From Thermoprotei archaeon (GTDB lineage: Archaea > Thermoproteota > Thermoprotei > Thermoproteales > B15-G16), in NCBI GenBank assembly GCA_003649205.1, contig QMRC01000006.1, positions 39,757-103,756 on the forward strand: 64,000 nt of DNA. The letters run 5' to 3'. Below, one piece after another: positions 1 through 18,438 of this stretch. The position numbers and the translations under genes were made by a program. Position 1 is the first letter of the stretch; every line of letters begins with the position of its first letter. The notes under the pieces were generated by a model. That model worked only from the letters and a program-made list of their open reading frames with translations. It ran no database searches and was not told the origin of the DNA.

Positions 1-86
1 CAGAAGAAACACCTGTAGTTGCACCTAGAGGTAATGGAGATCCTCATATGAGTTAGAGGTCTACCATATACATCGATGAGTACCAT
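1..86 (-). CDS. moaA: GTP 3',8-cyclase MoaA, 5' end (runs off window)
   Basis: Hand translation MVLIDVYGRPLTHMRISITSRCNYRCFFC matches the MoaA N-terminus (D.YGR, R.S.T..CN.RC..C); GGAGG RBS upstream; follows two moeA genes. Confidence 0.9.
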   Translation of the reverse strand, partial: MVLIDVYGRPLTHMRISITSRCNYRCFF

Positions 87-158
87 GGTGCTGTCCTCCT
101 TCAAGCACTCACAACATAGACCAAGCTACAATGTAAAAAATAAGTATTAACGCAATTG

Positions 159-2135: not shown

Positions 2136-3360
2136 AGAGAGTCACCTCAACAACATCACCAACATCATAACCCTCAACATCTTCAGGAACAACGAGGTAC
2201 CCATTACCTAGGACCAAGCTACGTAGTGACCCAGAACCACCGACCATGATGGGCTCAATAAAGTACTCACTACTAATACGACGAACAATAACGCGAACAA
2301 AGCACCTATAACCAACAACACCAGCAACCTTCTTAACCAACTTACCACGAACAACAGCTCTAGGAGGAGCTCTAACACCTAACCACTTGATTAAGATACT
2401 CCTCAAAATAAGCTCTAGAACAGCTAACGCAGCAACAGGTAGACCACTCATAGCAATAACCAACCTACCATCAACAGAGCTGACACAGGTAGTCCTTCCA
2501 GGTCTAATAGCTAGTCCATGCACCATGTACTCAGGTTCAAGCAACTTAATAGCCTTAACGCTGTAGTCCTTCCTACCTAGAGCAGTACCACCCACAATCA
2601 GCACCACGGAGTAATCACGAGAAATAAACTCTTTGACCTTACTAACAATTATACTCGTGTCATCAGGTACTACACAGGTAGTAACCTCAGTAAACCAGTT
2701 CTCACGTAGCCAACCAACGATCAGCCACATGGTGTAAGGTATTGCTAGACTTCGAACAAACTCGTCACCAGTAATGACAACACCGCACTTAAGGTCGTAG
2801 ACCTCAATTGAGGAAAGACCTTGTGAGGAGAGAGCAGCTAGGTGCCAAGGCCTAATGACATCACCTACACTTACTATGGTATCCCCAGTACTAAGCTCCT
2901 CCCCAACCAGAGACACATTACCGTACTTCGGAACACTGCGGTACACAGCAACAGTACCATCAGCAACCTCAACATCCTCAAGCCTAACAACAGCATCTGC
3001 ACCACGAGGAAGGTAACCACCAGTCTCTATCAAGACACACTCACCTTCACGAAGCTCAAAATTAGGAAGTTCACATGCGTGAACTACCTCATTACTCCTT
3101 AACTTAAGGTAGATGGGATTCACCTCACTAGCATGAGCAACATCACTAGACCTAACAGCAACACCATCCATAGTAGCCTTTAGGTGGGGCGGTATAGGTT
3201 TGCTACAGGTAATCGTACAGCTAGACACCTTACCCAATGCATGTAGTAGATCTAGAGTACATGAAGGAGGTAAATGTAGATACTTCACAACTTCACTAAC
3301 CACCTCATCAACTCTAGCGAATCTACCTAGTACCTCCACACCAACCCCCCTACCTAACAA
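2098..3360 (-). CDS. moeA: Molybdopterin molybdenumtransferase MoeA paralog
   Basis: ATMDGVAVRS, IETGGYLPRGADAVV, ITGDE, RPGR, SGLPVA motifs. Confidence 0.9.
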   Translation of the reverse strand: MLGRGVGVEVLGRFARVDEVVSEVVKYLHLPPSCTLDLLHALGKVSSCTITCSKPIPPHLKATMDGVAVRSSDVAHASEVNPIYLKLRSNEVVHACELPNFELREGECVLIETGGYLPRGADAVVRLEDVEVADGTVAVYRSVPKYGNVSLVGEELSTGDTIVSVGDVIRPWHLAALSSQGLSSIEVYDLKCGVVITGDEFVRSLAIPYTMWLIVGWLRENWFTEVTTCVVPDDTSIIVSKVKEFISRDYSVVLIVGGTALGRKDYSVKAIKLLEPEYMVHGLAIRPGRTTCVSSVDGRLVIAMSGLPVAALAVLELILRSILIKWLGVRAPPRAVVRGKLVKKVAGVVGYRCFVRVIVRRISSEYFIEPIMVGGSGSLRSLVLGNGYLVVPEDVEGYDVGDVVEVTLYGHVEEGLPQVS

Positions 3361-3920
3361 TCCTCAATCCTCACACTACCTACAGGTCTCAACTCTAAAG
3401 CCTTTGGATTAGCTGGACATGAACGTACACAGTGACCACAGCCAACACAACGACTCTGATCAATTACAGGACCTGAAGAACCTTTGGAAAAAGCGTTGAG
3501 AGGACAAACCTCAACACAGACAAAGCATTCACCACCTCTAAAGGCAATACACCTCTCTGGAAACCACACAACACTACCCAACTTAACTCTCGAGCTAATC
3601 TGCTTGAGAGCACCAGTTGGGCATGCAGAAGTACAGGGATATGGAGGAGAACAAACACCAATCGATATACCACAGAAACCTCTAGCTACATCGAGTTTGG
3701 GTGTCCTCCATATTTTCAAACCATCTCGTAATGACGTGAAGGTCAGGACCCCAGTTCCATACACCTTACAGGCCTCAATGCAGTGGCCACAGCCAATACA
3801 TAACTTGAGAAATTTATCCTCTACAACAGCGCCTGGAGGTCTAATGACCGGTTTGCAGGGAAATAGCTTACCAATTGCTCGAACAATCCTGATGAGAACT
3901 CTCATAGCTATGGAAGACAT
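3354..3920 (-). CDS. 4Fe-4S multicluster protein (NapG/MauM-like)
   Basis: IRPPGA, CIGCGHC, C..ACPTGAL, CFVCVEVCP, CVGCGHC...CP motifs. Confidence 0.85.
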   Translation of the reverse strand: MSSIAMRVLIRIVRAIGKLFPCKPVIRPPGAVVEDKFLKLCIGCGHCIEACKVYGTGVLTFTSLRDGLKIWRTPKLDVARGFCGISIGVCSPPYPCTSACPTGALKQISSRVKLGSVVWFPERCIAFRGGECFVCVEVCPLNAFSKGSSGPVIDQSRCVGCGHCVRSCPANPKALELRPVGSVRIEDC

Positions 3921-4846
3921 AGGTCAATTACCTCGATCTCATCTACATTACATGTACCCACTCCTCTCTCAGCAGCATACTTAATGTGCTTAACCTCTAA
4001 TGCCTTCTCTAGCGGGTTGGCACATCCCTCTAATTCGAAGAGATACGTAGCAGCTATCAAATCTGCCGCAACAGGATCACCAGACACAAAGATAGTATTC
4101 GCTTTGACGAGATTACCGTGCTGTGGTCCGTGACGTATCATGACTTCAGTAGCATCAATGACGACTAGATCAGGTCTAATAGCTGTATTCAGATCTGCAA
4201 TGCAGCTACTGAGACCAGCTAAGTGGAAGAGAGATTTCTCACTATCCGGTATAGCCCCCATCATGTTCTTCAGCGATATTGTGACTGTTGCCTCGACATG
4301 TCTCTTGAGCTTTGGTACTGATATCAGTACGTCACAGTCGTAGACCTCCTTATACACTTTAACACTCCTCAACGCACCCCCTCTCGTAGACACCTTAATT
4401 GGGTGACCAGATCTCTTCAGGTCAATTAGCTCAACACCTAACTCCTTAGCTAGCTCATGGTAACCACATAGCTTGAAACAAAGTGAAGTATCTAGACCAC
4501 TTACAGCGCTCTCTGCAATGACTATATTAACATCGCTAACCTCGCTCTTTATCAACTCAATCAAAGCCCTAACAACTGCTGGATTAGTCACAGCATCCAA
4601 CTTAGCGAAACCAACATTTGGTTTAATGACAACTCTATCACCAGACCTAATTAACTTAGATAAACCACCAAGAACCTCAAAACAGGACCTCAAACCGCTT
4701 CTGATATCAGTACTACGGACCTTAGCAACTAGAACCCTTCCATCCCTAATGTAGGGATTTAACCTACCTACTCTCGGTGGAAGAACAGTAGACCCACTAA
4801 CCCTAACGTAATTCAGTACCTTTCTCAGAAAGTAACCACAACACAC
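3908..4846 (-). CDS. DUF362 family protein
   Basis: VVIKPNV, TNP, ISVPKLKRH, LKNMMG, DPVAAD motifs. Confidence 0.88.
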   Translation of the reverse strand: MCCGYFLRKVLNYVRVSGSTVLPPRVGRLNPYIRDGRVLVAKVRSTDIRSGLRSCFEVLGGLSKLIRSGDRVVIKPNVGFAKLDAVTNPAVVRALIELIKSEVSDVNIVIAESAVSGLDTSLCFKLCGYHELAKELGVELIDLKRSGHPIKVSTRGGALRSVKVYKEVYDCDVLISVPKLKRHVEATVTISLKNMMGAIPDSEKSLFHLAGLSSCIADLNTAIRPDLVVIDATEVMIRHGPQHGNLVKANTIFVSGDPVAADLIAATYLFELEGCANPLEKALEVKHIKYAAERGVGTCNVDEIEVIDLCLP

Positions 4847-4949
4847 AACAAAACACCACTCAAAAATGATACAGCACTAACAACTCAATAACTTATCGAC
4901 TTAGTAAATCAGTAATCAGAGCCCCATATCGAGAGTAAAACTCAACATA

Positions 4950-5540
4950 CTCATCGAGAGTACGGCAGAATGGCAGCAGTGGCTTCTCAACATAACAGCT
5001 ATTAAAGCTGTAGACGATACTTAAGGGCATCCAGATTTAGGACGCAATTCAGACTTAAGGCCGTGAATAAATCCATCAATGACCTTAACACATTCCGTAT
5101 ATGTAGTACATACGCCAAGGCCTTGTCACTACGTACCCAACCCTCCAATAGTCAGTACCGAAGAACAGAACCCTACCATCAACACCACGAAGCACAGTAA
5201 CAACAGGAATACCCAACGTAAATTCTTCTGTAATCTTGGATGAGGTTCAAGTACTAAGAAAACAGCACAACACCACCAATGTAGGTACCTTAAGCGATTT
5301 CAGAATAGACCTTGATTAACGGCACTTACACTACGTGAAGACCACGTAATGAGGTCTACACCAAGTTCTTTAGCAATTTTCATAGCACCTAACTCAATAA
5401 ACTTTAGATACACTCACGTGAAGTACTGATTTGACAAGTGGTGACAAGTCTCTACTCTCTGCTAATGTGCTTGAGAATTTTGAGGAGCACTATGAGTAGG
5501 ATCACTGATCATTAATGTAGTTGGTTTTAGTTTCCTCATG
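4950..5540 (-). pseudogene. Degenerate DUF362 paralog remnant (boundaries approximate)
   Basis: Minus-strand fragment IELGAMKIAKELGVDLI (~5350-5398) resembles GYHELAKELGVELI of the neighbouring gene; VKVIDGFIHG further on; interrupted by stops. Confidence 0.5.
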
Positions 5541-5666
5541 TACCCTCAATCCGCGAAGGTACGTACTATCGTGCCTATCCTTAGCGTTGCACCATTACCC
5601 AATATGAGCGATAACTTAATTTGTAGGATCTCTAGAGCACGTGTTTTCGTCTATTTAGGGTAGGTA

Positions 5667-7007
5667 GTGCACTTTATGAGATTTGGAGAGAAGCTAGGTG
5701 CGCTCTTAATGGTTGAAGCTGCATTTGCTGGAGCATACGTTAGCATTACTCGTGGTTTCTTCTACTTGATGATGGTTGAACGTGGTTATAGTGTTAGGGA
5801 TCTAGCTGTAGTTAGCCTAGTGGCTTCACTATCTATGGTGCTTGTGAGCTACCTACTGTACAGGAGACCTGAGCTACTTGAGAGAAGCGTCAAGGTTAAA
5901 CTCCTCACCATGCACATACTCGAGAGAATTTTCTGGTGCATTCTACCATTCATAGTGTTTAGATTTAGCTACATGTTTATCCTCCTAGCTTACTCACTAG
6001 CACAGGTCATTACTGTACCTGTGTGCGTGCTGCTGAATACTGTGTTACTCTCTCAGCTAAGTGAGGACGAGTTCAAGAGCGTTACTGGGTGGAGGAATTC
6101 CCTTGGCCTAATCTCGTCATTAAGTGCTCAGCTATTGGCGGTCCACGTGTTAGCATCTATGAGGAGTCCAGTACGGTACTACTACCTTTACACAATTGCT
6201 CTACTCCTTGGCTTCCTCTCATGGATTCCACTTACTATTGCTAGAGTTAGGGACTATGTGAGGAAGGTTAGTGGTTACTCTAGTGAGGAGGTTGAGGTTA
6301 TTGCTGGTACTACGTTCATATACTTGGTCCTTCTACTTGGATCAGCTAACATGCTCAGCATCCTCTGGGTACCATATCTGGTGAATGACCTAGGTGCACC
6401 GAGCTACCTAGTAGCTATCATGAACGCTGCTGGTACGATCTCTGGTTCCATATCGTCAGTTCTCTGGATTAGAGTTGTGTACAGGTACTATCTCTGTGGA
6501 CTAGTTATTGACTCAGCTGTACCAACCTTAGTCATGACATTACCACCAATATTCCATCCAGCTCTAGCTGGGCTCTCAGCTTTTGGCTTTACAGCAGGTA
6601 ACTTCATTGGCTACTTCATGTACTCGAAGATAGCGGAGAAAAGCGACCCCATAAAGAACTCCACTAGGTTAGCTGCTGCTAATGCACTGGGTCTCCTAAT
6701 ATCATTGATACCAGTTGCTATCTTGAATTTGAGCGCTAGGGATGGACTAATTCTCTGTAGTTGCTTGAAGGTACTAGCTCTCGTAATTGCTCTGCTGAGT
6801 ATTAAGGAAGTATCGCCACTTCCTGATCCACGTATCAGGACTTATAGTAAGGTAATCTTCGAGACAGGTATGTTCTCATACAGGTTAACGCTCGAATTCA
6901 CTACTCACTACGTACTATATACCTTGAAGATAGTAGCTGTTGTCCTTATAATGCTCTTCATGTACTTCATCTACAGGACAGTTACCATACTGATTAGTGG
7001 TGCGTAG
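5667..7007 (+). CDS. MFS-type multi-pass membrane transporter
   Basis: About 12 hydrophobic segments in 446 aa. Confidence 0.65.
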   Translation: MHFMRFGEKLGALLMVEAAFAGAYVSITRGFFYLMMVERGYSVRDLAVVSLVASLSMVLVSYLLYRRPELLERSVKVKLLTMHILERIFWCILPFIVFRFSYMFILLAYSLAQVITVPVCVLLNTVLLSQLSEDEFKSVTGWRNSLGLISSLSAQLLAVHVLASMRSPVRYYYLYTIALLLGFLSWIPLTIARVRDYVRKVSGYSSEEVEVIAGTTFIYLVLLLGSANMLSILWVPYLVNDLGAPSYLVAIMNAAGTISGSISSVLWIRVVYRYYLCGLVIDSAVPTLVMTLPPIFHPALAGLSAFGFTAGNFIGYFMYSKIAEKSDPIKNSTRLAAANALGLLISLIPVAILNLSARDGLILCSCLKVLALVIALLSIKEVSPLPDPRIRTYSKVIFETGMFSYRLTLEFTTHYVLYTLKIVAVVLIMLFMYFIYRTVTILISGA

Positions 7008-7668
7008 TATGGAGTTATTGAACATGAGCAATGGCGAGGTAGCATTTGAGAGAATAATTCAAGCATTTAAGTTGGCACTAAATGAATTGATAGCACTGGT
7101 ACCTGTAGTACTAGCATCTGTCCTCATAGTTGCACTCATGCTAGTAATTGCTAAGTACGTAGGTTCTCTTGTCAAGAGGATACTGAAGGTAGTTGGTCTA
7201 GATAGGATACTTGAGAGGTACGTAGGTACACCACCGATATCTGTCGAGAACTTCATCGTCGTATTCATACAGCTGGGCTTCGTAATACTTGGCGTAACAA
7301 TATCCGTGACAGTATTCGCACCTGAGTACCTAGCTACCTACAACATGTACCTATCCTATATACTGAGGTTGATGTCGGCTGTAGCACTCATAATAATAAC
7401 GCTCTTCTGGATAGAGGTACTAGTGAATAAGATTCGTGGTGAGAGCAAGGTAAAGGCATTTGCCTCACTAATAGCCTTCCTCCTAATACTCACCTTCATA
7501 ATCGACGTAACAGCACTATCTGAAAGCGTTAAGTCATCACTCGTATTCGGAATATCCCTTGGACTTGGATTGACAATAGGAGTATTCTCCATATGGTACT
7601 TCATGCATGAATACCTTGAGCACTACATCAGCAGAAAGCATGGAGAGAAAGAGGTCAGACAAGGCTGA
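6997..7668 (+). CDS. TM-helix-repeat membrane protein (MscS/CmpX-like); its 3' end and stop codon lie in the attL core
   Basis: LVPVVLASVLIV...GSLVKRILKVVGLDR pattern; about 5 TM segments. Confidence 0.65.
   Translation: MVRSMELLNMSNGEVAFERIIQAFKLALNELIALVPVVLASVLIVALMLVIAKYVGSLVKRILKVVGLDRILERYVGTPPISVENFIVVFIQLGFVILGVTISVTVFAPEYLATYNMYLSYILRLMSAVALIIITLFWIEVLVNKIRGESKVKAFASLIAFLLILTFIIDVTALSESVKSSLVFGISLGLGLTIGVFSIWYFMHEYLEHYISRKHGEKEVRQG
7652..7668 (+). repeat. attL core, 17-bp direct repeat AGGTCAGACAAGGCTGA
   Basis: Identical to 18439-18455; adjacent to the integrase; internal dyad TCAG-6nt-CTGA. Confidence 0.92.
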
Positions 7669-7678
7669 TTGAGTTCTC

Positions 7679-8842
7679 ATGGAAGAAATCACACCTGATA
7701 GCCCTATCTATCAGGTGAGAATAGGTCTCAATTCGATGGAGTTGCTGAAGCACTTTGAGAGTTGGTTAATTGCTCAGAACCTGTCCGTGGCTACGGTTAG
7801 GTCTCATGTTAGACAGGTTAGGTCTTTCCTCACGTGGTTTGGTAGGTCTATCGAGGATTTGAGTAGTTTCGATATTGCGTGTTACCTAGCTGAGTGCCGT
7901 AAGCGTGGTCTATCTGAGGCTAGTGTGAATCGCTATGCTTCTGCTCTCAAGAAATTCCTGAGGTTCCTAGCTAGTTACTTCAGAGCTAGGAGAAGGGTTG
8001 AGTTAGCTAATTACTTTGAGCAGGTGTACCGTGAGGTCAAGGTACCTAAGTACGACCTAGTTGAGGTCAGCATTAAGCGACACATGGAGCCTGATACAGC
8101 GAGGAAAGTCATAGACTTAATTCATGACCCCTACTGGAAGTGCTTTTTCGCTGTGCTGTATGAGACAGGTCTGAGGTTGAGGGAGCTTAGACAGGTCAAG
8201 GTAAGTGATGTTCACGAGAACAAGCACGGGTTCGAGATAGTTGTCAGAGATAGCAAGACACCTGAGGGAGTTAGGAAAGTGTACGTGGTTGAGTACTATC
8301 AGCTACTGAGGTACTACCTAGAGCATGTACGTCCGAGAGATAGCGAGTGGTTGTTCCCTGCTAGGAGAGACCCAAGGCAACCAATCTCCGAGAAAGCAAT
8401 CTACAGCTTTCTAAACCGCTTCAGAAAGCGGACAGGTATCGTGATTAGTCCACACCGCTTTAGACACGCTAGAGCTACTGAGCTTTACCGCAAGGGAGTA
8501 TCTGAGCAGTCGTTAATGAGGTTGTTTGGTTGGAGGACAAGGACAATGATTGATGTCTACAGTAAGCTTTCACAGCGAGATGTGGAGTCTGAGCTACTGA
8601 GCAAGGTCTACGGGCTATCCCCTGTAGAGAGTGAGAGGTCTCAGACTCGTAAGTGCCCGAGGTGTGGTGCTGAGGTAATACCCACAGCTAGGTACTGTCC
8701 ATACTGTGGTCTAGCCCTAGATATTGCGTCAGTATTAGGCAAAGAGGAACAGGTACGGAAATACGCAGAGCTCATTGAAGCACTGCTGAGGTACCTAGAG
8801 GAACACCCAGAGTACCTGTCGAAACTATTCTCAAGGACTTAA
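7679..8842 (+). CDS. Tyrosine integrase with C-terminal zinc ribbon (SNJ2/pNOB8-like architecture); start may be ATG 7736
   Basis: YETGLR (R), DSKT (K), HRFRH (HxxR), FGW, DVY (Y); C-terminal CPRCG...CPYCG. Confidence 0.93.
   Translation: MEEITPDSPIYQVRIGLNSMELLKHFESWLIAQNLSVATVRSHVRQVRSFLTWFGRSIEDLSSFDIACYLAECRKRGLSEASVNRYASALKKFLRFLASYFRARRRVELANYFEQVYREVKVPKYDLVEVSIKRHMEPDTARKVIDLIHDPYWKCFFAVLYETGLRLRELRQVKVSDVHENKHGFEIVVRDSKTPEGVRKVYVVEYYQLLRYYLEHVRPRDSEWLFPARRDPRQPISEKAIYSFLNRFRKRTGIVISPHRFRHARATELYRKGVSEQSLMRLFGWRTRTMIDVYSKLSQRDVESELLSKVYGLSPVESERSQTRKCPRCGAEVIPTARYCPYCGLALDIASVLGKEEQVRKYAELIEALLRYLEEHPEYLSKLFSRT
7692..7717. repeat. 10-bp inverted repeat CACCTGATAG/CTATCAGGTG beside attL
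   Basis: Perfect 10-bp arms with a 6-nt loop. Confidence 0.7.
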
Positions 8843-8995
8843 AAGCGGACATGAAACACAGGCAGAGAACACCAAGACCCGCCCTATAGTCCAGAGGAAA
8901 TGTTGCCTGAATTCAACAATAGTCTAATATGCGTATACGTGTGAGTGAACAGCGAGCGAGGTAATACACCACTTGAGGATGAATAGGGGCTCCTC

Positions 8996-9064
8996 GGGGG
9001 ATGATGAAGGGCTTAGCGGAGCGACCCCGCAAGGGGGTATGGCTGGACCAGGCTAGCTGACCCC
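8996..9064 (+). ncRNA. Provirus-encoded C/D-box-like sRNA candidate
   Basis: C box ATGATGA 9001-9007, D box CTGA 9057-9060, terminal GGGG/CCCC stem, internal CCCC-GCAA-GGGG hairpin; C'/D' boxes degenerate. Confidence 0.55.
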
Positions 9065-9078
9065 TACCCCCTCGCCCC

Positions 9079-9099
9079 GTGATAATGGGTTATTATCAC
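9079..9099. promoter_or_regulatory. Inverted repeat GTGATAAT-N5-ATTATCAC next to a TATA-like TATTTAAG
   Basis: Perfect 8-bp arms. Confidence 0.45.
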
Positions 9100-9186
9100 C
9101 AATATTTAAGTTTCTATGCAATTACAGTGAAATTACCATGGTTACTTTCTCGTGAGGGGGTTTAAGAACCCTTGATACGTCTTTGC

Positions 9187-9534
9187 TTAGCCTTTCTTTC
9201 TGATTAGTCCTCCTATTGCTCCTCCTATCATTGATAGGAATGCTGAGGCTAGCATCATGAATATTATTGCTAACCCTGCTAACCCACCTGCCCATGCTCC
9301 TAGGAATCCAGCTACTGAGAAGCCTAGTACTGTCAGCACTATTGCTGCTAGTATTCCTCCAATGATTCCACTGAGGAACCCTGCTGCTGCTCCTCTACCT
9401 GCTCCTCCTCCAGCTACTAGACCTGCTATGAAGCCTCCAAGTACTGGTGCGAAGATGTGTAGTATGGGTGAGAGTACGGCTGTAGCTAACATACCTGCAA
9501 AGACACCAGCTATGAAACTCAGTACACGACCCAT
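9187..9534 (-). CDS. Gly-rich small membrane protein (DUF5518-like)
   Basis: APVLGGFIAG...GAAAGFLSGIIGG...IGGAIGG pattern. Confidence 0.65.
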   Translation of the reverse strand: MGRVLSFIAGVFAGMLATAVLSPILHIFAPVLGGFIAGLVAGGGAGRGAAAGFLSGIIGGILAAIVLTVLGFSVAGFLGAWAGGLAGLAIIFMMLASAFLSMIGGAIGGLIRKKG

Positions 9535-9804
9535 GTAGGGAAAACCCCGAGGAAACCAGATACAGAGAGGACATAAAGCAGTTCAGAACATAGAGAGCAA
9601 TGAACCTAGCAACCTCAGAGGACAGAAAACAAGAACGCTCCTCCGGTCGGTGATGAATACTTGTACTTTTCTCTCGGTGACTTTCCTCAAGGCACTAAAT
9701 AAGAAATTGCTCTACTCTACAGTGGTATGGATTCTGAGGATTTTTGGATTGGTTTTCTCCTTGGTTACAGTACTGGTCTTATTCATGCGAAAAACTTAAC
9801 AACT

Positions 9805-10188
9805 TCAGAACTTGTCTTCAGGCTCATTTCCTGTTCCTTCATGCTCAGTGAGTTGTTGGGTACTAGACTTAATGAGTTCTTCAGCTCTTTGGAGAAGTTC
9901 AGCGACTTCACGACCCTTCTCAGTGAGCTCAATGTACCTAAGACCGTGCTTGGTATACGTCCTAACAAGACCGTACTGAAGACAGGTACTGAGGGCTCTG
10001 TAAGTACTGACAGGTGAGATACCGTATCTCTGAAGTTCTCTAATGTGCATAGCTCTACCTGTTTTGTGAAGAATTAGCAGCAATTTAATTCCCGGTCTAC
10101 CTAAGTCATCAGCTAGAGCTGACATTTTCCTCTGTCGTTTTCTGGTGATAAACCTAATAACGATATCTTCGAGCATTCGTAACCTCAT
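9805..10188 (-). CDS. Winged-helix DNA-binding protein (SSV1 F93-like); start may be 10125
   Basis: ISPVSTYRAL...GLV...RYIELTEKGREVAE wHTH signature. Confidence 0.75.
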   Translation of the reverse strand: MRLRMLEDIVIRFITRKRQRKMSALADDLGRPGIKLLLILHKTGRAMHIRELQRYGISPVSTYRALSTCLQYGLVRTYTKHGLRYIELTEKGREVAELLQRAEELIKSSTQQLTEHEGTGNEPEDKF

Positions 10189-10199
10189 TCTCAGTCTAT

Positions 10200-10286
10200 A
10201 CCCGATTTAGAGGTATCACGTAATAATATTACAACGCTATATCTCGAAACTGATAAATTGTTATAACGTTACAGAGTTGTAACAGG
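10200..10286. promoter_or_regulatory. Divergent promoter/operator region between the wHTH and RHH genes
   Basis: Dyads GTAATAATATTAC (10220-10232), GTTATAAC (10260-10267), GTTAC-N6-GTAAC (10268-10283). Confidence 0.55.
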
Positions 10287-10484
10287 GTGAGAGAGGTGCC
10301 TAAGAGTAAGGTGCCTATGGTCTTGGTTACCTTCCATATCCCGATACCACTCCTTAGAGAACTTGACAGGTTGGTGGAGGAGGGTAAGTTCCCGAGCAGG
10401 AGCGAGGCGATAAGGCACGCAATAATCCAACTCCTAGCTCGTGAGCGTCAAAGAACACAAATACACGAGGTGTTGGTAGCGTGA
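10287..10484 (+). CDS. Ribbon-helix-helix (CopG family) regulator
   Basis: VTFHIP..LLRELDRLVEEGKFPSRSEAIRHAI. Confidence 0.88.
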   Translation: MREVPKSKVPMVLVTFHIPIPLLRELDRLVEEGKFPSRSEAIRHAIIQLLARERQRTQIHEVLVA

Positions 10485-10729
10485 CCATTGTCAACTATGT
10501 CGAGGTAATTAGGAACATCATACTCAATGCTTTGAAGGAGCATGGCTACATTAGTGACCTAGAGCTTGTTAGGGCTGTCAAAGAGGCTACGGGACTCAGC
10601 TACGTAGACTTTGCTCCCATTCTTGAGCAGGTACTGAGTGAGCTAATGAGGTCTGGCGCAATTAGACGTGTAATGTCAGCAAGCAACCCGAGAAAGGTCG
10701 AGCATGGGTGGGAGCTGTGTACACAATAA
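10481..10729 (+). CDS. Small putative wHTH viral protein
   Basis: Overlapping stop/start (GTGA); LSELMRSGAIRR motif. Confidence 0.55.
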   Translation: MTIVNYVEVIRNIILNALKEHGYISDLELVRAVKEATGLSYVDFAPILEQVLSELMRSGAIRRVMSASNPRKVEHGWELCTQ

Positions 10730-11073
10730 AGCCGAATGGATTCTACCTCAGGTTGGTTTTGGATGCACTGAAGTACTGTGCTAGGACTGAAAGAGGCTCT
10801 ATTGTGTCTATTTACCCAAAGAAAGTCGCTAAGTTAAATGGGTACAGTGTTCGTGCATGTGGGAGGTATAGAGATGACAGTGAGGTAGAGAGGTCGCTAT
10901 CCCCTGCCGAGCTATCTATCATTAGGTACTGGCTGGATTACCTCTGGGTCAATGGGCTGTGTAGCCGTGAGAAGACTAGTCGTGACAGGTGGAACTACGT
11001 ATTCCCGAGGGAGAACTTGCCTAAGGCTATCAAGCTACTTGAGGAGGTGCTCAATGGTGAAGTACAAGATTGA
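10708..11073 (+). CDS. Hypothetical viral protein
   Basis: ORF within a tightly packed operon. Confidence 0.6.
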   Translation: MGAVYTIKPNGFYLRLVLDALKYCARTERGSIVSIYPKKVAKLNGYSVRACGRYRDDSEVERSLSPAELSIIRYWLDYLWVNGLCSREKTSRDRWNYVFPRENLPKAIKLLEEVLNGEVQD

Positions 11074-11194
11074 GGAGATAGTCAAGGAGTTGAAGGTTGC
11101 TCTCAGGGATAGAGAACTCAGAGAAGCATTGCTGAAGCACTTCTCCAACAACCCAAAGGCTCAAGCAATCATACTACTCCTGTCAGGTGAGTGA
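11054..11194 (+). CDS. Small hypothetical viral protein (MVKYKIEE...)
   Basis: GAGGAGGTG RBS before ATG 11054; stop overlaps the next start. Confidence 0.55.
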   Translation: MVKYKIEEIVKELKVALRDRELREALLKHFSNNPKAQAIILLLSGE

Positions 11195-11433
11195 GCATGA
11201 TTGAGCTGAGTTTCAAGACGAAGCGGGACTTCGATAACTGGGTTAAGGCGCTGTATGACTTCGGTTCGAATCACTGTGTTGAGCCTGTCGTCATCAAGCT
11301 AGATGGTAATGACCTCTACGACAGGTACATGGTCTGCATTGTGTACCATGCTTGGACTGAGGAAGGTGCTTACGCAGTGACCTGTCTAGCCCGCATAGTA
11401 GCGATAGTGTACAGGGAAGGTGAGCAGAAGTGA
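11191..11433 (+). CDS. Hypothetical viral protein
   Basis: GGTGA RBS; coupled starts and stops. Confidence 0.55.
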   Translation: MSMIELSFKTKRDFDNWVKALYDFGSNHCVEPVVIKLDGNDLYDRYMVCIVYHAWTEEGAYAVTCLARIVAIVYREGEQK

Positions 11434-11612
11434 GTCGCTACCACGGGCACAAGGTAACTATCACGATTATTGCGACAACAGGTTCTGGACTACCGACAGG
11501 TGAGCGAAAGAGCGATTTCATTAGATTCATGGTCGAGCAGGTACTGGAACGTGAGCTTTCTAAGAGGCTCCGTGATTTCCGTGTCCTCAAAGTCATGGTG
11601 AAGGTGATGTAG
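11430..11612 (+). CDS. Hypothetical viral protein
   Basis: GGTGA RBS; coupled start. Confidence 0.5.
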   Translation: MSRYHGHKVTITIIATTGSGLPTGERKSDFIRFMVEQVLERELSKRLRDFRVLKVMVKVM

Positions 11613-11691
11613 ATGGTTCCTGCTACTACTACCTATTCTATTTCTAGTAATTCGTTTAGACAAAATACGCGGGACATTAAACGCGGTTCAG

Positions 11692-11816
11692 ATTGGAACC
11701 AATGTTCCCTCTCAGAGGAATCATTGAAACCAATCATTGGAATCAATGTCAGTGGTATGATTGGAACCAATGATTGGAACCAATCATTCCACTCGCTTAG
11801 TCTCATTGGTTCCAAA
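11692..11816. repeat. Cluster of six ATTGGAACCAAT-type dyad repeats
   Basis: Copies at 11692, 11723 (1 mismatch), 11736 (1 mismatch), 11760, 11773 and inverted at 11805. Confidence 0.85.
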
Positions 11817-11827
11817 AACGGAGAGAG

Positions 11828-12151
11828 GTGTTGAGTATCCCCCGAATAACTATCTACATCCATGAGAGCGATTGGGAAAAGCTGACGAAAATAGCTGAGC
11901 AGAGAGGACAATCAATGTACAGCATAGTGAAGCAAGTAGTACTTGAGTTCCTGAAGCTAAGTAACCCAATTGTTGCTCATGGTAAGCTTTCTAGGGATTT
12001 AGCTACCTGTCGGAGCATTATCAAGCGATTTGGTTGGTGTGCTCTCTGCATACATGCTGAGGTTGTTGGTGATAGGTTAGTCTGCAGAAAGACAGGCAAA
12101 GTCATAGAAAAACCCATATGGCAATGCCCACACCCCATACCCAAGGTGTAA
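11828..12151 (+). CDS. RHH protein with C-terminal Cys/His zinc-binding motif
   Basis: RITIYI...WEKLTKIAEQRGQSMYSIVK; CALC.H...C...C. Confidence 0.7.
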   Translation: MLSIPRITIYIHESDWEKLTKIAEQRGQSMYSIVKQVVLEFLKLSNPIVAHGKLSRDLATCRSIIKRFGWCALCIHAEVVGDRLVCRKTGKVIEKPIWQCPHPIPKV

Positions 12152-12160
12152 ATCATGCTT

Positions 12161-12184
12161 TTTACACAGCTGCAGCTGTGTAAA
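12161..12184. repeat. Perfect 24-bp palindrome TTTACACAGCTGCAGCTGTGTAAA
   Basis: Read directly; further GTGTAAA-like half-sites at 12146, 12190 and 12207. Confidence 0.85.
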
Positions 12185-12227
12185 TGATTTTTACTCACTG
12201 ACAGGTGCGTAAATTTGGTGAGAATTC

Positions 12228-12596
12228 ATGTCCGAGATGGAGAAGTTAATTAGGAACCTGAACATACTGCGAAACTACTTCAGCAAGGTACCACCTGAAG
12301 TCATTGAGGCTCTCATGTACTTTGAGGATAGGTTCTTCACTGAGAAATACCATGTTGTTCGCTCTAAGACAGGTAGGGAGTATCGCTACAGGTACCTCTA
12401 CATCAGGTTGAATGACTACAGGACACTAGGTTACTTCAGGATAAATGATAGCAATGATGAATTGCTGCTACACGAAATTAGGCAGGTCAAGGCATTTTCA
12501 CAAGCACTACTACAGTACATAGCAATGCTCAGACACAGCAAACTAGCAAACCTCACCAAAATTTACTCAAGGACCTTGAGTAAAAACAACCAATAA
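12228..12596 (+). CDS. Hypothetical viral protein
   Basis: GGTGA RBS; basic/aromatic KTGREYRYRYLY segment. Confidence 0.6.
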   Translation: MSEMEKLIRNLNILRNYFSKVPPEVIEALMYFEDRFFTEKYHVVRSKTGREYRYRYLYIRLNDYRTLGYFRINDSNDELLLHEIRQVKAFSQALLQYIAMLRHSKLANLTKIYSRTLSKNNQ

Positions 12597-12657
12597 CACA
12601 TCAGCAATTGGGGAAATTGAATTGGGGTGATGCCCCCTGAACCTCAAGGTCTATTTC

Positions 12658-13644
12658 GTGAAGAAAACTAGGCAATACGAGGTCTATGAGGGCTCTAGGA
12701 GAATCCTCAGGACTAAGGTACATGCAAAAGCTCACGAGTACCTATCGAAACAAATCAATTCAAGTTTTGAGTTCTACTTTGTTTGTTGCAATAGGGAGCA
12801 CCTGTTAGCATGTTCACGTTTCTTTGAACTCACAGGTCGCAGGCTCAATGTGTTGATTAGTTACAACTTCATACGTGACAGGTACCTCACACAGGTGCTT
12901 CAGCAAGTTAGACCACACCTAAGCAAAGTCATGATTGATTCAGGTGCTTTCCATGTACTTATCCGCAAGGTACCCCTGGAAAAGTTCCAGAGCTACATAG
13001 GTGAGTACGTGAATTGGCTCAACAACCACACAGAGCTTTACGACTACTGTGTCGCACCTGACGTACCCTGTGATGAACGACCCGCAGAAAAAATCCAGAA
13101 ACTACCAAACAGGTACAAGATAGAGCTAACCATAGCTAACACAGTTCACTGGATAGATAGGTTGACAGACCCTCGCAAGGCTGTGGCTGTAGTTCAGGGT
13201 TATTTCGTGAATGAGTACCTGCTCTGTGCTGAGAAGCTGAAAGAACTCGGGCTCACAACAGCAAAGACAGGTGTCGGCTCTTTATGTGTCAGGAAATACA
13301 GTAGACAACAAGCACGTGAAGTACCACAGATACTAGCTAGCATAAGACAGGTCTTACCGTCATGGGTGAAACTTCACGCATTCGGTCTTCAGCTAGATTT
13401 CTTACCGACCTGTCTCAAGTACCTACACAGCTCAGACAGTGCCTCATGGCAATTAAGTTACTCAAAGTTCAATAGGATACGAATAGCGAACCTGTCGACA
13501 GGTCAAACAGTTGAGCTTGATTTAGTTAGTCATGGCGGAGCGAGGAAAAAGAACCTAGACCAAGTCACGATATACACATACAACCTCTTAGCCTACTGGA
13601 ATAGAGTTCAGCAACTAACGAGACAGGCAGCACAGACAAAATAA
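12658..13644 (+). CDS. TGT/DpdA-like guanine transglycosylase (putative 7-deazaguanine DNA insertion enzyme)
   Basis: Ordered TGT-fold motifs IDSGAF, APDVP, VVQG, GVGSL, LHAFG, SSDSASW. Confidence 0.75.
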   Translation: MKKTRQYEVYEGSRRILRTKVHAKAHEYLSKQINSSFEFYFVCCNREHLLACSRFFELTGRRLNVLISYNFIRDRYLTQVLQQVRPHLSKVMIDSGAFHVLIRKVPLEKFQSYIGEYVNWLNNHTELYDYCVAPDVPCDERPAEKIQKLPNRYKIELTIANTVHWIDRLTDPRKAVAVVQGYFVNEYLLCAEKLKELGLTTAKTGVGSLCVRKYSRQQAREVPQILASIRQVLPSWVKLHAFGLQLDFLPTCLKYLHSSDSASWQLSYSKFNRIRIANLSTGQTVELDLVSHGGARKKNLDQVTIYTYNLLAYWNRVQQLTRQAAQTK

Positions 13645-13663
13645 AGTAAGTGTTGAAAACTGC

Positions 13664-14428
13664 TCAAGTCCCCATGTTCTCTATCTCATGTCCTGTAGGG
13701 TATAGGTTCAGTTTCTTTATGTACTTGTACACTGTTTGACGTGAAACACCGAGTGCTCTAGCTATATCACTTATACTGTAACCTTTCTTCAACATATCCT
13801 CAATAGTCTTCTCCCTATTAGCAGTCTGGATAGCTACCTGTAAGTCCATGAACACCTTCTCAACAAAGAGCCTCCTCATTTCCTGATACTTCACATAGAT
13901 GTCGTGGTCTAGCTTAGGCACGAAGGTATCTACACCAATTTCCTTCACCACGAACTTACCCGTAGGAGTCCACGTAAACCTGTAGATGTGTGCCTCTCTC
14001 TCACCTTGCTTACTCTTCCTAATGTGTACATGTATCCAACACATCTCACGTAGTGCTCTTAAGAGCAGGCGATAGGTAGGTACCGTGAATATGACAGCAC
14101 CTGTCACAGTCCTAGCAACCTCAAGGAACTTTACAAATAGCTGACGGTCTTCTTTAAGAAAGTCATATTTGCTTATCCACACACCAGCATCATCATAGCA
14201 CAGACACTTAACACGCTTACGATACCTAAGACACTCCCTAATAATTGGGAAAGACTGCTTAACATCGAAGAATACGTAGTTGAGAGCAGTCTCCCTACAA
14301 TACAGCTCACTCAAGACCTTGATAGCGTAGGTAGTCTTACCAACCCCTTGCTGACCCTGAATAACAATAACCTCAAATCCATTGTTCCTGAAAGCACGCT
14401 CAATTATCTTAGTTAGGACAAACGGCAT
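13664..14428 (-). CDS. P-loop ATPase similar to fusellovirus B251, with C-terminal HTH
   Basis: GQQGVGKTTYAIKV, YDDAGVWISKY, ARTVTGAVIFTVP resemble SSV1 B251 as I recall it; SISDIARALGVSRQTVYKY HTH. Confidence 0.8.
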   Translation of the reverse strand: MPFVLTKIIERAFRNNGFEVIVIQGQQGVGKTTYAIKVLSELYCRETALNYVFFDVKQSFPIIRECLRYRKRVKCLCYDDAGVWISKYDFLKEDRQLFVKFLEVARTVTGAVIFTVPTYRLLLRALREMCWIHVHIRKSKQGEREAHIYRFTWTPTGKFVVKEIGVDTFVPKLDHDIYVKYQEMRRLFVEKVFMDLQVAIQTANREKTIEDMLKKGYSISDIARALGVSRQTVYKYIKKLNLYPTGHEIENMGT

Positions 14429-14431
14429 ACC

Positions 14432-14734
14432 TCACTCCTCCTCAATCTCCTCCTCACGACCAACAGGTATGAACCTCTTACGACCCATTACATGCGTTAT
14501 AGTCCTGAAGAACTTAGCAAACGATAGCAGAGCTGAGTAACCACGACCGCCCTCAGCTAACCTCAACTCAAGGTAAGGTATGATGAATGAGTCTCTCAAG
14601 TCCTGAAGGTTGTACCTGTCGCATATGAAGAGCAACGTAGCTATCTTACGAGCCTCACCATACTGCAACCTAGTTAAGCGAAGTATGTTCCCCGAGGTAA
14701 GAGCCTCAATTAGTTCCTCTGACATGAGCCTCAC
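14432..14734 (-). CDS. Hypothetical viral protein
   Basis: GAGGTGA RBS; operonic. Confidence 0.6.
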   Translation of the reverse strand: MRLMSEELIEALTSGNILRLTRLQYGEARKIATLLFICDRYNLQDLRDSFIIPYLELRLAEGGRGYSALLSFAKFFRTITHVMGRKRFIPVGREEEIEEE

Positions 14735-14735
14735 C

Positions 14736-15191
14736 TCACAGGTGAATGATACCGAACTTCACGAGCATGAACATGATGTACGCACCTATGATTAACCCAC
14801 AAATCAGAGCAATGATGACAGGAGTAGCCCTAACAGGTACCTTCTCCGTTAGCAGAGCCCTCAGTACCTGTCCCTTGATAATCTGCGATATAGTGTCACT
14901 ATCAATGTAGGGGTCTTGATATTGACCACAGAAGTACACTATCTTTCTGACAGGTGCCCACACCTTCACGTCTCTAAACACCCTAACCCTACCCCCAGCA
15001 AGCACCAGCTTCCTCTCCGGATTGAGCAATTTAGCAGGCGTAATCTCGACATGCTTATCGTTCACGATAATAGCTATGTGCTTTGACCTGAAGATACGTC
15101 CTTCAGGTCTCGCTAGGAACATCATGATGAATGTGACAGGTATAGCTACGCAGTATATTGCGACTAGGATAGGGCTCAACATAGGGCTCAC
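14736..15191 (-). CDS. Viral membrane protein (N- and C-terminal TM)
   Basis: Two hydrophobic termini; operonic. Confidence 0.65.
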   Translation of the reverse strand: MSPMLSPILVAIYCVAIPVTFIMMFLARPEGRIFRSKHIAIIVNDKHVEITPAKLLNPERKLVLAGGRVRVFRDVKVWAPVRKIVYFCGQYQDPYIDSDTISQIIKGQVLRALLTEKVPVRATPVIIALICGLIIGAYIMFMLVKFGIIHL

Positions 15192-15713
15192 CTACAGAGT
15201 CTTCTCAGCTTCAGCAATGAGCTTGTTCAGGACCTGCTCAACCCTCTCAATTCGCTTAGCTAACTCACTGAGCCTATCCTCACTATGATTTGAGCCTAGC
15301 TTACTCACGTCGATAGCGTCTAGGAATATCGAGAGCGGAACAGCAATAGCGTACTCAAACCTCTCAACCTTACCACTCTGCTCGACAGGTATCGTAACTT
15401 GCTGAGCCTCCCTCTCCCTCACCAAAATCAGAACACGGTCAGGATTCCTAACCGCAGAGACAGGTAGCTTAGACAGGTACGGTCTCCTACCTGTCTCACT
15501 TTCGGACGTGTACGGTCTACCTCTCTGAAAGTGAAGTACTAAGCACAGAGCACCGAGACTAGCTAGAGCAATGAAACCAACCCACTTCAGCGTAAAGACC
15601 GCTCCAGAGGATATCTTAGCAGTCAGTGGTGACAGGTATGGGTCATACCAAATCAAGTACATGACTGCACCTGTGAGCAGTGCTGTGCTCAGGTAAAGGA
15701 AACGAGTACTCAC
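15192..15713 (-). CDS. Viral membrane protein with C-terminal coiled coil
   Basis: Two N-terminal TM segments; GAGGTGG RBS. Confidence 0.65.
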   Translation of the reverse strand: MSTRFLYLSTALLTGAVMYLIWYDPYLSPLTAKISSGAVFTLKWVGFIALASLGALCLVLHFQRGRPYTSESETGRRPYLSKLPVSAVRNPDRVLILVREREAQQVTIPVEQSGKVERFEYAIAVPLSIFLDAIDVSKLGSNHSEDRLSELAKRIERVEQVLNKLIAEAEKTL

Positions 15714-15838
15714 TTACAACCCACCTCACTTATGTAAACTTTTTCACAAAAACCATAAGGTCAACTTGCGAGATATCCTGAATAATCACTGAACACGGAG
15801 CAAACCTGAGACAGGTCGAAAAGTAGGAGGTGAAGTAG

Positions 15839-16198
15839 GTGGACATAGACCTAGGGAACATCCTGAGAGCTGTCCTGTTTGTAGCCCTAATACCCACGCT
15901 ATTCGGAGCTATAGCTGGATTCGTTGACCCTTCACTACAACCAATGATACAGCCCCTACTCAGCCTAGTACCAATGCTCATAATCCTCAACCTAATCAAA
16001 GACCTGTTCTCAGAAGCTGGAGCAAAGGGATTCGTCAAGATATTCGATATCCTACTGCTCGTAATGATGTTACCTGTCCTAATCAACATGTTCGGAGCAG
16101 CCACAGGACAAAACGAAGCACTAGCACAAGTCTCAGGACTCCTACAGCAACTCCTACCAATCCTACTATTCATCAAGCTCATCGAAGAGATGGTTTAG
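15839..16198 (+). CDS. Putative major capsid protein with two tandem SSV1-VP1-like helical hairpins
   Basis: Strong RBS AGGAGGTGA; repeats VALIPTL...LLSLVPMLII and VMMLPVL...LLQQLLPILL. Confidence 0.62.
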   Translation: MDIDLGNILRAVLFVALIPTLFGAIAGFVDPSLQPMIQPLLSLVPMLIILNLIKDLFSEAGAKGFVKIFDILLLVMMLPVLINMFGAATGQNEALAQVSGLLQQLLPILLFIKLIEEMV

Positions 16199-16219
16199 TT
16201 CCTTCGAGGTGATTAAGCT

Positions 16220-17974: not shown

Positions 17975-17977
17975 AGC

Positions 17978-18280
17978 ATGACTAACCGCTACGTCTACCT
18001 TGGAAAGAAAGTGAAGGACATAGGCAAGAAAGGACTAGACCGACCAAGCGAGTACCTAGCAATAGCGAGAGCTATAGCACAAGACTACAAGGCTGGTAGG
18101 ATAAGTAAAAAGACTGCTCACGGACGCTTTTTACTACTTTACAGGCTCGTGGATAAGAATAGCAAGCTGAAGGTACCTAAGTCAGTTAAGGAACGTCTCA
18201 AACGCAAGATTAAGGAAATCTGGATGAAGACCATTGGAGGTGGGAAGGTGGCTCGAAAGAGGAAAAGAAAGAAAAGGTAG
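17978..18280 (+). CDS. Highly basic putative virion DNA-binding protein
   Basis: Very high K/R content; last gene of the structural operon. Confidence 0.6.
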   Translation: MTNRYVYLGKKVKDIGKKGLDRPSEYLAIARAIAQDYKAGRISKKTAHGRFLLLYRLVDKNSKLKVPKSVKERLKRKIKEIWMKTIGGGKVARKRKRKKR

Positions 18281-18438
18281 GCTCAAGTCACATCACCTGT
18301 ATGTCGCTCTAACTACCTAATTTCTTGAGCTTGCTCTAGTCCTCAAGAATTCTTTACACATGTCTCATGTCCTGCGACCTGTCACCTAGACCTGAACTAG
18401 CTCAAGACAGAAGGTGGGTGACTTCTCTCAACTTATTT

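Follow-up and report, generated by a model that had tools for sequence, protein, structure and literature searches.

The 64,000-nucleotide stretch of Thermoprotei archaeon DNA analyzed here, referred to as the window (contig QMRC01000006.1 of assembly GCA_003649205.1), very probably contains a genuine C/D-type small RNA (sRNA) gene at positions 8986-9079 of the plus strand. The fuller interpretation that we favor, and that we hold to be probable though well short of assured, is that the locus is a tRNA-directed dual-guide C/D sRNA gene, carried as cargo by a provirus, whose product would act through methylation of tRNA-Ser(GCU). Judged from its sequence, the RNA is a member of the tRNA-directed dual-guide sRNAs of genomes in the class of the host. 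The basis observed in this study consists of the boxes, the closing stem, the location in the element, the complementarities, an architecture conserved with variable guides, and the host protein genes; from these, we infer transcription, assembly of a ribonucleoprotein (RNP), methylation, and any benefit to the element. The parts of the locus are as follows.

8986-9000, plus strand: G-rich 5′ flank, of which GGGGG (8996-9000) serves as the 5′ strand of the closing stem; identical in the paralogue on contig C2
9001-9007, plus strand: box C (ATGATGA), invariant in the nine-sequence alignment A1
9008-9020, plus strand: D′ guide AGGGCTTAGCGGA, 13 nt, antisense to C32-C41 of tRNA-Ser(GCU)
9021-9024, plus strand: degenerate D′-like box GCGA, directly 5′ of the hairpin, where members of the family have CUxA-like tetramers
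9025-9036, plus strand: internal hairpin CCCC-GCAA-GGGG, replacing the usual short D′-C′ spacer
9037-9043, plus strand: degenerate C′-like box GUAUGGC (GTATGGC in the DNA); the family consensus is GAUGG
9044-9056, plus strand: D guide TGGACCAGGCTAG, 13 nt, antisense to nucleotides 12-24 (D-loop) of tRNA-Ser(GCU)
9057-9060, plus strand: box D (CTGA), invariant in alignment A1
9061-9079, plus strand: 3′ strand of the closing stem (CCCCT, 9061-9065) and conserved C-rich tail (CCCCTACCCCCTCGCCCC), kept in the C2 copy up to 9081

An earlier note on this DNA, made from the letters and their open reading frames (ORFs), had pointed out perfect C and D boxes spanning 60 nt and closed by a G/C stem, and these are present as described: the span from box C to box D is 60 nt, and GGGGG at 8996-9000 pairs with CCCCT at 9061-9065 in a stem of 5 bp. 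The assignment to the C/D-box guide-type RNAs made there is borne out by a scan of the whole 2.07-Mb genome for perfect boxes 46-65 nt apart with a closing stem of at least 4 bp, which gave 10 candidates and exceeded chance, given that the reversed genome yielded one and each of five mononucleotide shuffles none to two. The two G+C-richest candidates (0.66) are the window RNA and its paralogue, and several of the other eight resemble textbook sRNAs of 50-55 nt; the window RNA has a G+C content of about 65-66%, compared with 43% for the genome. When Rfam was searched at a permissive threshold over 8600-9400, five of the six matches were C/D-box families, and the best of them, sR21, covered its full length at 8997-9065 (plus strand) with 19.5 bits against a gathering score of 45. 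No match for the window RNA was obtained at the gathering thresholds of Rfam, and it therefore lies outside every curated family of that database.

Both guides find their best partner in the same host tRNA. ARAGORN made 50 tRNA calls in the genome, of which three with implausible introns longer than 150 nt were dropped, leaving 47 sequences, 44 of them distinct. The D guide pairs at 13 of 13 positions, all Watson-Crick, with nucleotides 12-24 (CUAGCCUGGUCCA) of the tRNA-Ser(GCU) encoded on contig C1, with a duplex energy of −26.0 kcal/mol that none of 1000 shuffled guides equaled on any tRNA. Its N+5 nucleotide, G9052, which is the fifth upstream of box D, pairs with C16, in agreement with the tRNA D-arm and the position that the earlier note had proposed. 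The D-loop of tRNA-Gly(UCC) is the second-best target (13 pairs including one G-U, −23.7 kcal/mol), and seven further tRNA calls pair at 11/12, bringing to nine the calls that reach at least 11/12. For the D′ guide, the best target among the 44 tRNAs is the anticodon loop of tRNA-Ser(GCU), as had been suggested for an anticodon arm of this type: 10 contiguous pairs, nine Watson-Crick and one G-U, are formed with C32-C41 (−19.2 kcal/mol), a pairing equaled on this tRNA by 56 of 5000 shuffled guides. The matching of the guides to the host tRNA set that had been called for gives a tRNA with which each of them forms at least 10 bp, and which the two address in colinear antiparallel order. If GCGA is taken as the D′ box, the N+5 nucleotide is G9016, the fifth upstream of it, which pairs with C35 in the middle of the anticodon; a shift of one nucleotide in the placement of the box would make G34 or U36 the predicted target.

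Throughout the genome, perfect tRNA antisense of at least 11 nt right before CTGA, not counting the antisense strands of tRNA genes themselves, occurs at two loci judged to be C/D-like. The second of them is a compact canonical sRNA of the chromosome (C2:272653-272705, plus strand), whose D guide, starting at nucleotide 25 of tRNA-Leu(GAG), is perfectly antisense to it over 11 nt or more. Three further matches were judged to be without box C context and were set aside.

The best-supported mode of action, in the light of sequence evidence, would be the ordinary guide function of a kink-turn RNP at C16 of tRNA-Ser(GCU) and possibly also within its anticodon. On folding of the transcript, boxes C and D, closed by the G/C stem, would form a kink-turn to which host L7Ae binds, and host Nop5 and fibrillarin would then assemble on the L7Ae-bound RNA. 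The D guide would pair with nucleotides 12-24 of tRNA-Ser(GCU), as well as with the near-identical D-loops of several tRNAs, leading to 2′-O-methylation of C16, while the D′ guide would pair with C32-C41 of tRNA-Ser(GCU) and direct methylation of an anticodon nucleotide, which is predicted to be C35 by the N+5 rule, ±1, because the degenerate D′ box makes the site uncertain by one position. The host codes for the proteins involved, that is, for Nop5 (PF01798, 245 bits) and fibrillarin (PF01269, 346 bits), whose genes are adjacent on contig C1, and for L7Ae (PF01248, 113 bits).

The RNA gene lies within an integrated virus-like element, 150 nt downstream of an integrase gene and on the same strand, which accords with the location inside a provirus given in the earlier note. 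The element is bounded by exact direct repeats of 17 nt, and in the sister genome G001, which is 71% complete (compared with 94% for the host genome) and is the sole other genome of the genus, sequence corresponding to 1-7668 of the window is joined to that from 18439 onward with an overlap of 17 nt. The repeats and this empty site indicate that the 10.8 kb between the repeats (7669-18438) is an integrated element, of which the following features are relevant here.

7652-7668, no strand: attL core, one copy of the 17-nt exact direct repeat AGGTCAGACAAGGCTGA, comprising the 3′ end, with the stop codon, of the host gene 6997-7668
7679-8842, plus strand: 387-aa tyrosine integrase bearing a C-terminal zinc ribbon (Pfam Phage_integrase 3.4e-24 and Phage_int_SAM_1 1.8e-13; phrog_1 integrase 7.9e-39)
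12658-13644, plus strand: DpdA-like transglycosylase of the TGT fold (Pfam DpdA at 27 bits, exactly the cut-off; phrog_1279 "queuine tRNA-ribosyltransferase" 4e-11)
13664-14428, minus strand: fusellovirus-type DnaA-like ATPase with a helix-turn-helix domain (phrog_5484 5e-41; tblastn matches to viruses)
18439-18455, no strand: attR core, the second exact copy of AGGTCAGACAAGGCTGA

The element, which also codes for two ribbon-helix-helix proteins, is likely a fusellovirus-like provirus, a label given on account of its DnaA-like ATPase, its integrase, and the arrangement of its genes. In tblastn searches, the ATPase matched 70 virus records at 24-35% identity, 57 of them bearing names of Sulfolobus spindle-shaped viruses (SSVs) or related viruses, and the gene layout is similar to that of fusellovirus SMF1. 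No capsid protein was recognized among the products of the element, and virus records gave no match to its hydrophobic 115-aa protein or its 584-aa protein. The integrase gene is intact, and the element is therefore not of the SSV type, which splits its own integrase gene. The element inserted not into a tRNA gene but into a membrane-protein gene, at its 3′ end with the stop codon. In metagenome run X2, one of four runs compared with the locus, contigs cover 8999-9065 with four differing letters and join the RNA across a replaced spacer to a DUF5518 gene, which also follows the RNA in the window; this retained linkage suggests that the RNA is a stable part of this lineage of elements. The same run contains a C2-type copy. 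The DpdA-like gene and an RNA with a guide spanning G15, the archaeosine position of tRNAs, occur in the same element, possibly by coincidence. Just outside attR, on the minus strand at 18535-19990, a gene carrying the archaeosine-synthase-type domain DUF5591 (19274-19990) overlaps an ORF of 252 aa for which Pfam gives no match; this region is present in G001 and is therefore host DNA.

Two copies of the RNA exist in the host genome, and each lies beside an integrase gene or its relic. The second copy is found on contig C2 in a remnant of 1.3 kb (about 53486-54781; L002:1212-2507), the whole of which is absent from the orthologous site in G001. Homology between the C2 contig and the window is confined to 7665-9081, which comprises the integrase and the sRNA, and stops 21 nt past box D. 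The integrase of the remnant is broken into at least three ORF fragments and the sRNA copy looks intact; no second att copy is recognizable at the sRNA-side end of the remnant. The conservation of boxes in homologous elements, proposed earlier as a check, is seen in this copy, which keeps the boxes, the stem, and the hairpin: its 5′ flank and box C are identical to those of the window RNA at 22 of 22 positions, and its hairpin, box D, and tail are retained. The D guide, in an ungapped comparison, shares only 3 of 13 positions with that of the window. The D′ guide is changed at several positions and still forms 11 of 12 pairs with C31-G42 of tRNA-Ser(GCU), its register with respect to the box being unchanged. 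The best target of the C2 D guide is the anticodon loop of tRNA-Gly(UCC), with 10 contiguous pairs, which 87 of 5000 shuffles equaled on that tRNA. Such conservation of the boxes with replacement of the guides is the hallmark of evolution in C/D sRNAs. A DNA-level search of 60 relatives returned only the two copies of the host genome.

Relatives beyond the host were recovered by structure. A pattern scan of metagenome contigs gave 118 loci, mostly due to chance, among which seven (L045, L051, L053, L072, L078, L084, and L085) share the architecture. The covariance model R1, built from these seven and the two genomic copies, scored its nine sequences at 69-92 bits, and the other 13 matches among 100 sources at 36 bits or less. 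In 120 genomes of the host's class, R1 found matches at E ≤ 1e-3 in nine, including the host's own; the stronger ones are in G096 (71 bits), G083 (61 bits, with three weaker matches), and G108 (55 bits). In the plan of the family, a G-rich 5′ flank and box C are followed by about 13 nt of guide, a tetramer resembling CUxA, and the hairpin; the 3′ half consists of (G/U)AUGG, a second guide (13-15 nt), box D, and a C-rich tail that often ends in CCCCCUC. Tails resembling CCCCCTC are found in L051, L078, L140, and L045, and the G-rich 5′ and C-rich 3′ flanks are conserved in the window RNA, C2, L051, L078, and L140. In all 16 sequences of alignment A3, the three inner pairs of the closing stem (columns 23-25/109-111) are G-C, and across family members the hairpin stems vary by paired changes (CCCC/GGGG, GGGC/GCCC, GCCC/GGGC, CCGCC/GGCGG, and CCACCC/GGGTGG). 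In A3, which is fitted to the model and hence leans toward its structure, three of the four hairpin pairs show changes on both sides, and the covariation score of 0.160, compared with 0.086 for shuffled alignments, was reached by 1 of 500 shuffles. Five of the weaker R1 matches (L142, L144, L147, L150, and L151) are compact forms without the hairpin. The boxes are kept while the guides vary in the C2 paralogue and 14 further sequences.

The first guides of the family, when read as complements, spell an anticodon loop followed by the 3′ side of the anticodon stem, a reading made for the metagenomic members from their sequences by themselves. The types recognized are listed below, and in each listed guide the nucleotide opposite tRNA position 35 is the ninth after box C.

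Ser GCU: the window RNA, C2, L051, and L053
Gly GCC: L045, L072, L078, L140, L141, and L143
Ala UGC: L149
Asp GUC: L145 and L154

A comparison of guides with the tRNAs of their own genome covered G083, for which 43 matches gave 32 distinct tRNAs, tRNA-Gly(GCC) not being among them. Three of its eight guides have at least 11 Watson-Crick pairs of 13 at a D-arm or an anticodon loop: the D′ guide of L149 pairs at 11 of 13 positions (Watson-Crick) with nucleotides 31-43 of tRNA-Ala(UGC), and the D guides of L154 and L153 form 12 pairs each, 11 of them Watson-Crick, with the D-arms of tRNA-Asp and tRNA-Gly(UCC), respectively. The remaining five guides are weaker, with 9-11 pairs.

The sRNAs most like that of the window are L051 and L053, with 78% identity; in both, the first guide is of the tRNA-Ser(GCU) type, as in the window RNA, and their D guide has 12 nt in common with that of the window, shifted by 2 nt relative to box D. 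The sRNA of L051 is convergent with an integrase gene rather than in tandem with it. A Pfam search of 34 ORFs at 13 other family loci found ordinary genes, such as those for an aminotransferase, an ABC transporter, GDPD, a creatininase, an iron repressor, and two PIN-domain proteins, and an integrase fragment at one locus only, L051. The closest subfamily is thus linked to an integrase in all three members with usable flanks (the window RNA, C2, and L051), and the wider family is mostly chromosomal. The earlier note had called the RNA virus-encoded, which holds insofar as the element carries it; the type of RNA is not specific to viruses, and since most of its relatives are among ordinary chromosomal genes, the element appears to carry a host-type guide rather than a viral invention. 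The two PIN-domain (VapC-like) genes, L149:1771-2208 and L145:2093-2554, lie within about 0.5 kb of chromosomal family members at 2 of the 13 loci, a neighborhood that may be due to chance, such genes being common in Thermoproteota. A second metagenomic group (L024, L059, L086, L091, L095, and L118) was rejected as orthologous copies of an ordinary sRNA locus from another organism. In that group, the flanks are near-identical across samples and the guides differ, which looks like fast guide turnover in an organism of lower G+C content.

Several observations weigh against the reading of the locus as a working dual guide. GCGA agrees with CUGA at 2 of 4 positions and GUAUGG with UGAUGA at 3 of 6, as the earlier note had already cautioned in calling these boxes degenerate; a 12-nt hairpin stands between them, and both guide spacers, with the boxes as placed, are 13 nt long compared with the canonical 12 (12-15 nt in the family). 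On account of these features, the D′ half might be inactive or its site shifted. Degenerate internal boxes are found in many archaeal sRNAs. Taken by itself, the D′ pairing is unusual to a modest degree only, 89 of 1000 shuffles having equaled it on some tRNA, and the guides of the C2 copy are not significant against all tRNAs (439 and, for the D guide, 293 of 1000 shuffles). Upstream of that copy, no obvious A/T-rich promoter-like stretch was noticed by reading. In the relatives, the register of the D guide on the D-arm is inconstant, with N+5 falling on U13, A14, G15, or C16, and no single conserved methylation site is therefore evident; the special link to G15 and archaeosine suggested in the earlier note loses its footing for the same reason, there being no conserved focus beside G15. 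An rRNA target is conceivable, as the host rRNA genes are absent from the assembly; the target search used the rRNAs of three genomes of the same order, and on their 16S and 23S sense strands the guides formed at most 8 Watson-Crick pairs of 13. To our knowledge, neither a 2′-O-methylated nucleotide 16 nor 35 has been demonstrated in archaeal tRNA. Finally, the minimum-free-energy fold is no more stable than that of shuffled sequences (z = −0.12), and neither strand differs in this respect, but unremarkable folding energy is expected for guide RNAs and is uninformative.

One alternative explanation is that the RNA is a selfish sRNA-like module, similar to a miniature inverted-repeat transposable element (MITE), that hitch-hikes with integrase-bearing elements and has leftover guides of no use to virus or host. 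We consider it unlikely. In its favor, the MITE-like sRNA copies of Pyrobaculum calidifontis (Lui et al. 2018) have near-consensus C/D boxes, degenerate C′/D′ boxes, inverted-repeat flanks, and orphan or non-conserved tRNA targets, traits that the window RNA shares. The inconsistent D-guide registers of the family would fit such a module, as would the C2 copy, in which the conserved block 8986-9079 has unconserved sequence at either end. A selfish module, however, would hardly be expected in just two copies that occupy the same place relative to an integrase instead of being scattered, and the unit they share is the integrase with the sRNA, not the sRNA alone. A 13-of-13 match to a host tRNA together with a second guide on the same tRNA is also unlike decayed guides, and the window RNA, C2, L051, and, by complement reading, further members agree in the D′ register on the anticodon loop (nucleotides 31-43). 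It might alternatively be supposed that a C/D RNP, or the naked RNA, sequesters or refolds tRNA-Ser(GCU) as an antisense or chaperone RNA without methylating it and thereby tunes the decoding of AGY codons. The colinear antiparallel placement of both guides on one tRNA and the degeneracy of the internal boxes, which are needed for efficient catalysis, speak for this idea, but we give it little credence, since the share of AGY codons is the same in genes of the element (0.48) and flanking host genes (0.48), and the perfect terminal boxes with a D guide exactly abutting box D suit catalysis. Moreover, we know of no C/D sRNA that acts by sequestration.

The earlier note had itself offered a replication origin or a decayed minus-strand tRNA as alternatives, and a tRNA-derived att site beside the integrase can be considered with them, the C/D boxes being fortuitous in each case. 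On the reverse complement, the D-loop 13-mer of tRNA-Ser(GCU) does precede most of the anticodon loop of that tRNA, as it would in a tRNA gene, and the locus is next to an integrase; archaeal elements commonly integrate into tRNA genes. ARAGORN, however, found no tRNA in the window, and Rfam no tRNA match in 8600-9400 even at E ≤ 10, whereas in SSV7 (L360), used as a positive control, the Rfam tRNA model scored 29.8 bits at 3352-3410, inside the integrase gene 2574-3584, a tRNA-like stretch that we take to be the known SSV-type attP. The real att core is elsewhere (7652-7668 and 18439-18455), and the guides do not resemble the att regions to a significant degree. The tRNA-like segments are 37 nt apart as against 23 and are separated by an unrelated hairpin, and the identity to tRNA extends over only 13 nt and about 10 nt, each segment ending exactly at a box. 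As for the repeated motifs that had suggested an origin, the likeness of AGCGAGCGAGG and AGCGGAGCGAC (8950-8961 and 9015-9025) is real, but neither is kept in the C2 copy, so that it is probably due to chance; motifs of the AGCGAGCGAG type are likewise not kept there. The decayed tRNA, the att site, and the origin were rejected on the results of ARAGORN, Rfam, att mapping, and the comparison of guides with att regions, and we regard them as highly improbable. A role as a guide for DNA transactions, similar to bridge RNA or TIGR systems, in which the RNA would aim the integrase or another protein at tRNA genes, is brought to mind by the presence of a two-guide RNA beside a recombinase gene in all three of the closest-subfamily members with flanks (the window RNA, C2, and L051). 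We find it barely conceivable: the element sits at the 3′ end of a protein gene and not at tRNA-Ser(GCU), matches between guides and att are no better than chance (214 to 1912 of 2000 shuffles), Pfam recognizes no Nop-domain or other guide-binding protein in the element, the orientation of the sRNA relative to the integrase is inverted in L051, and an integrase is nearby at only 1 of 13 other family loci.

Searches of further collections added no other carrier. Relatives of the integrase were found at two loci in genome contigs, at 30-31% identity and with no C/D element downstream, and none were found in viral contigs. A strict hairpin pattern gave 10 chance matches from bacteria in genome contigs and none in viral contigs. 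With a looser pattern, viral contigs (IMG/VR) gave 50 loci, none of which exceeded 29.1 bits with R1, and genome contigs at least 120, mostly bacterial, none among those listed exceeding 27.2 bits. No match to the RNA was obtained by blastn in phage and plasmid collections. In six related reference viruses (four fuselloviruses and two pleolipovirus-like), the box scan gave no candidates and R1 scored at most 12.9 bits; Rfam, applied to four of the six, found no C/D family at E ≤ 1. A C/D sRNA gene borne by an archaeal virus or plasmid was not found in the literature searched, and other papers or their supplements could hold a precedent; a small RNA gene may have been described in Sulfolobus conjugative plasmids (Greve et al., 2004).

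Box C/D guides are viewed as chromosomal housekeeping genes in archaea. If a guide borne by an integrating virus-like element is indeed directed at the anticodon and the D-loop of a host tRNA, archaeal viruses could reprogram host RNA modification with a 70-nt gene, an archaeal counterpart of v-snoRNA1 of Epstein-Barr virus (EBV), and the rapid gain and loss of sRNA genes and their MITE-like spread, as described in Pyrobaculum, would have a concrete vehicle. A bolder extension of the dual-guide reading is that the provirus recruits the host fibrillarin complex to rewrite the methylation of the anticodon (35 ±1) and C16 of tRNA-Ser(GCU), as a weapon or a tool, with other tRNAs that share the D-loop being hit as well and decayed proviruses leaving guides behind, as in the C2 remnant. 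This scenario is decidedly doubtful. If the provirus did reprogram the tRNA, one possible purpose is to make it resistant to anticodon-cleaving defense nucleases, and another is to hinder the insertion of preQ0 at G15 while the DpdA-like transglycosylase of the element takes the same precursor for its own DNA. Were it true, viruses would be a source of new methylation guides and of MITE-like sRNA families in Thermoproteota. Apart from this scenario, a single guide RNA with two predicted sites in one tRNA would make a simple system for probing whether ribose methylation takes place inside an anticodon and with what effect, and even if the RNA is silent cargo, the locus would be a clean case of a guide RNA gene in horizontal transit.

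Intron-encoded and stand-alone guides of archaea methylate tRNA anticodon loops, as exemplified by the intron of pre-tRNA-Trp (Cm34/Um39). The window RNA resembles them as a box C/D guide that would address the anticodon loop of a specific tRNA, and differs in that they are host genes acting at positions 34 and 39, whereas it is directed to position 35 (±1), has an added D-loop guide, and travels on a mobile carrier. Its closest counterparts are the guides predicted in Pyrobaculum for C15, C16, G16, A35, C36, and C39 of tRNAs (Lui et al. 2018, NAR 46:5678, PMC6009581), and the targets proposed here are, in view of those predictions, less odd than they look. Among them are sR125 and sR121 (C15), sR122 (A35), and the dual guide sR126 (C36 and G16 of tRNA-Ala), which is of a rare kind (PMC6009581). 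Both sets come from hyperthermophiles of Thermoproteota and combine box C/D architecture with predicted targets at D-loop positions 15/16 and anticodon positions 35/36. The window RNA shares with sR126 the aiming of one RNA at both arms of one tRNA, but in sR126 the D guide is on the anticodon and the D′ guide on the D-loop, the reverse of the arrangement found here. As described there, the Pyrobaculum tRNA guides are chromosomal, compact (about 50 nt), and provided with a short D′-C′ spacer; the window RNA, compared with them by description, differs by its internal hairpin, its spacers of 13 nt, its long G/C flanks, and its place inside an integrated virus-like element.

The MITE-like sRNA elements of P. 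calidifontis (sR131, sR133, sR137, sR139, and sR141), for which the supplement lists C16 of tRNA-Leu (PMC6009581), have in common with the window RNA the near-consensus C/D boxes, the degenerate D′/C′ boxes, the imperfect inverted-repeat flanks, the location in unstable genome regions, and D guides predicted to act on C16 or C15 of tRNAs. They are dispersed in 15 copies, with no carrier virus or integrase reported for them, in contrast with the two integrase-linked copies found here; many dispersed copies do not occur in the host genome, and G083 has four weaker members. The nearest viral case is v-snoRNA1 of EBV, a virus-encoded box C/D RNA that uses host fibrillarin (Hutzinger et al. 2009, PMC2718842; Cell Rep 2026, PMC13597479) and that is reported to guide 2′-O-methylation of host RNAs (PMC13597479). 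It belongs to a eukaryotic herpesvirus, has rRNA-site targets, and bears no evolutionary relation to the archaeal RNA, whose function is only a predicted one. The window RNA thus combines known traits of Pyrobaculum sRNAs and adds a carrier to them, and it is therefore not a new class; what is new in relation to these known guides is the apparent presence of a C/D sRNA as cargo of an archaeal fusellovirus-like provirus.

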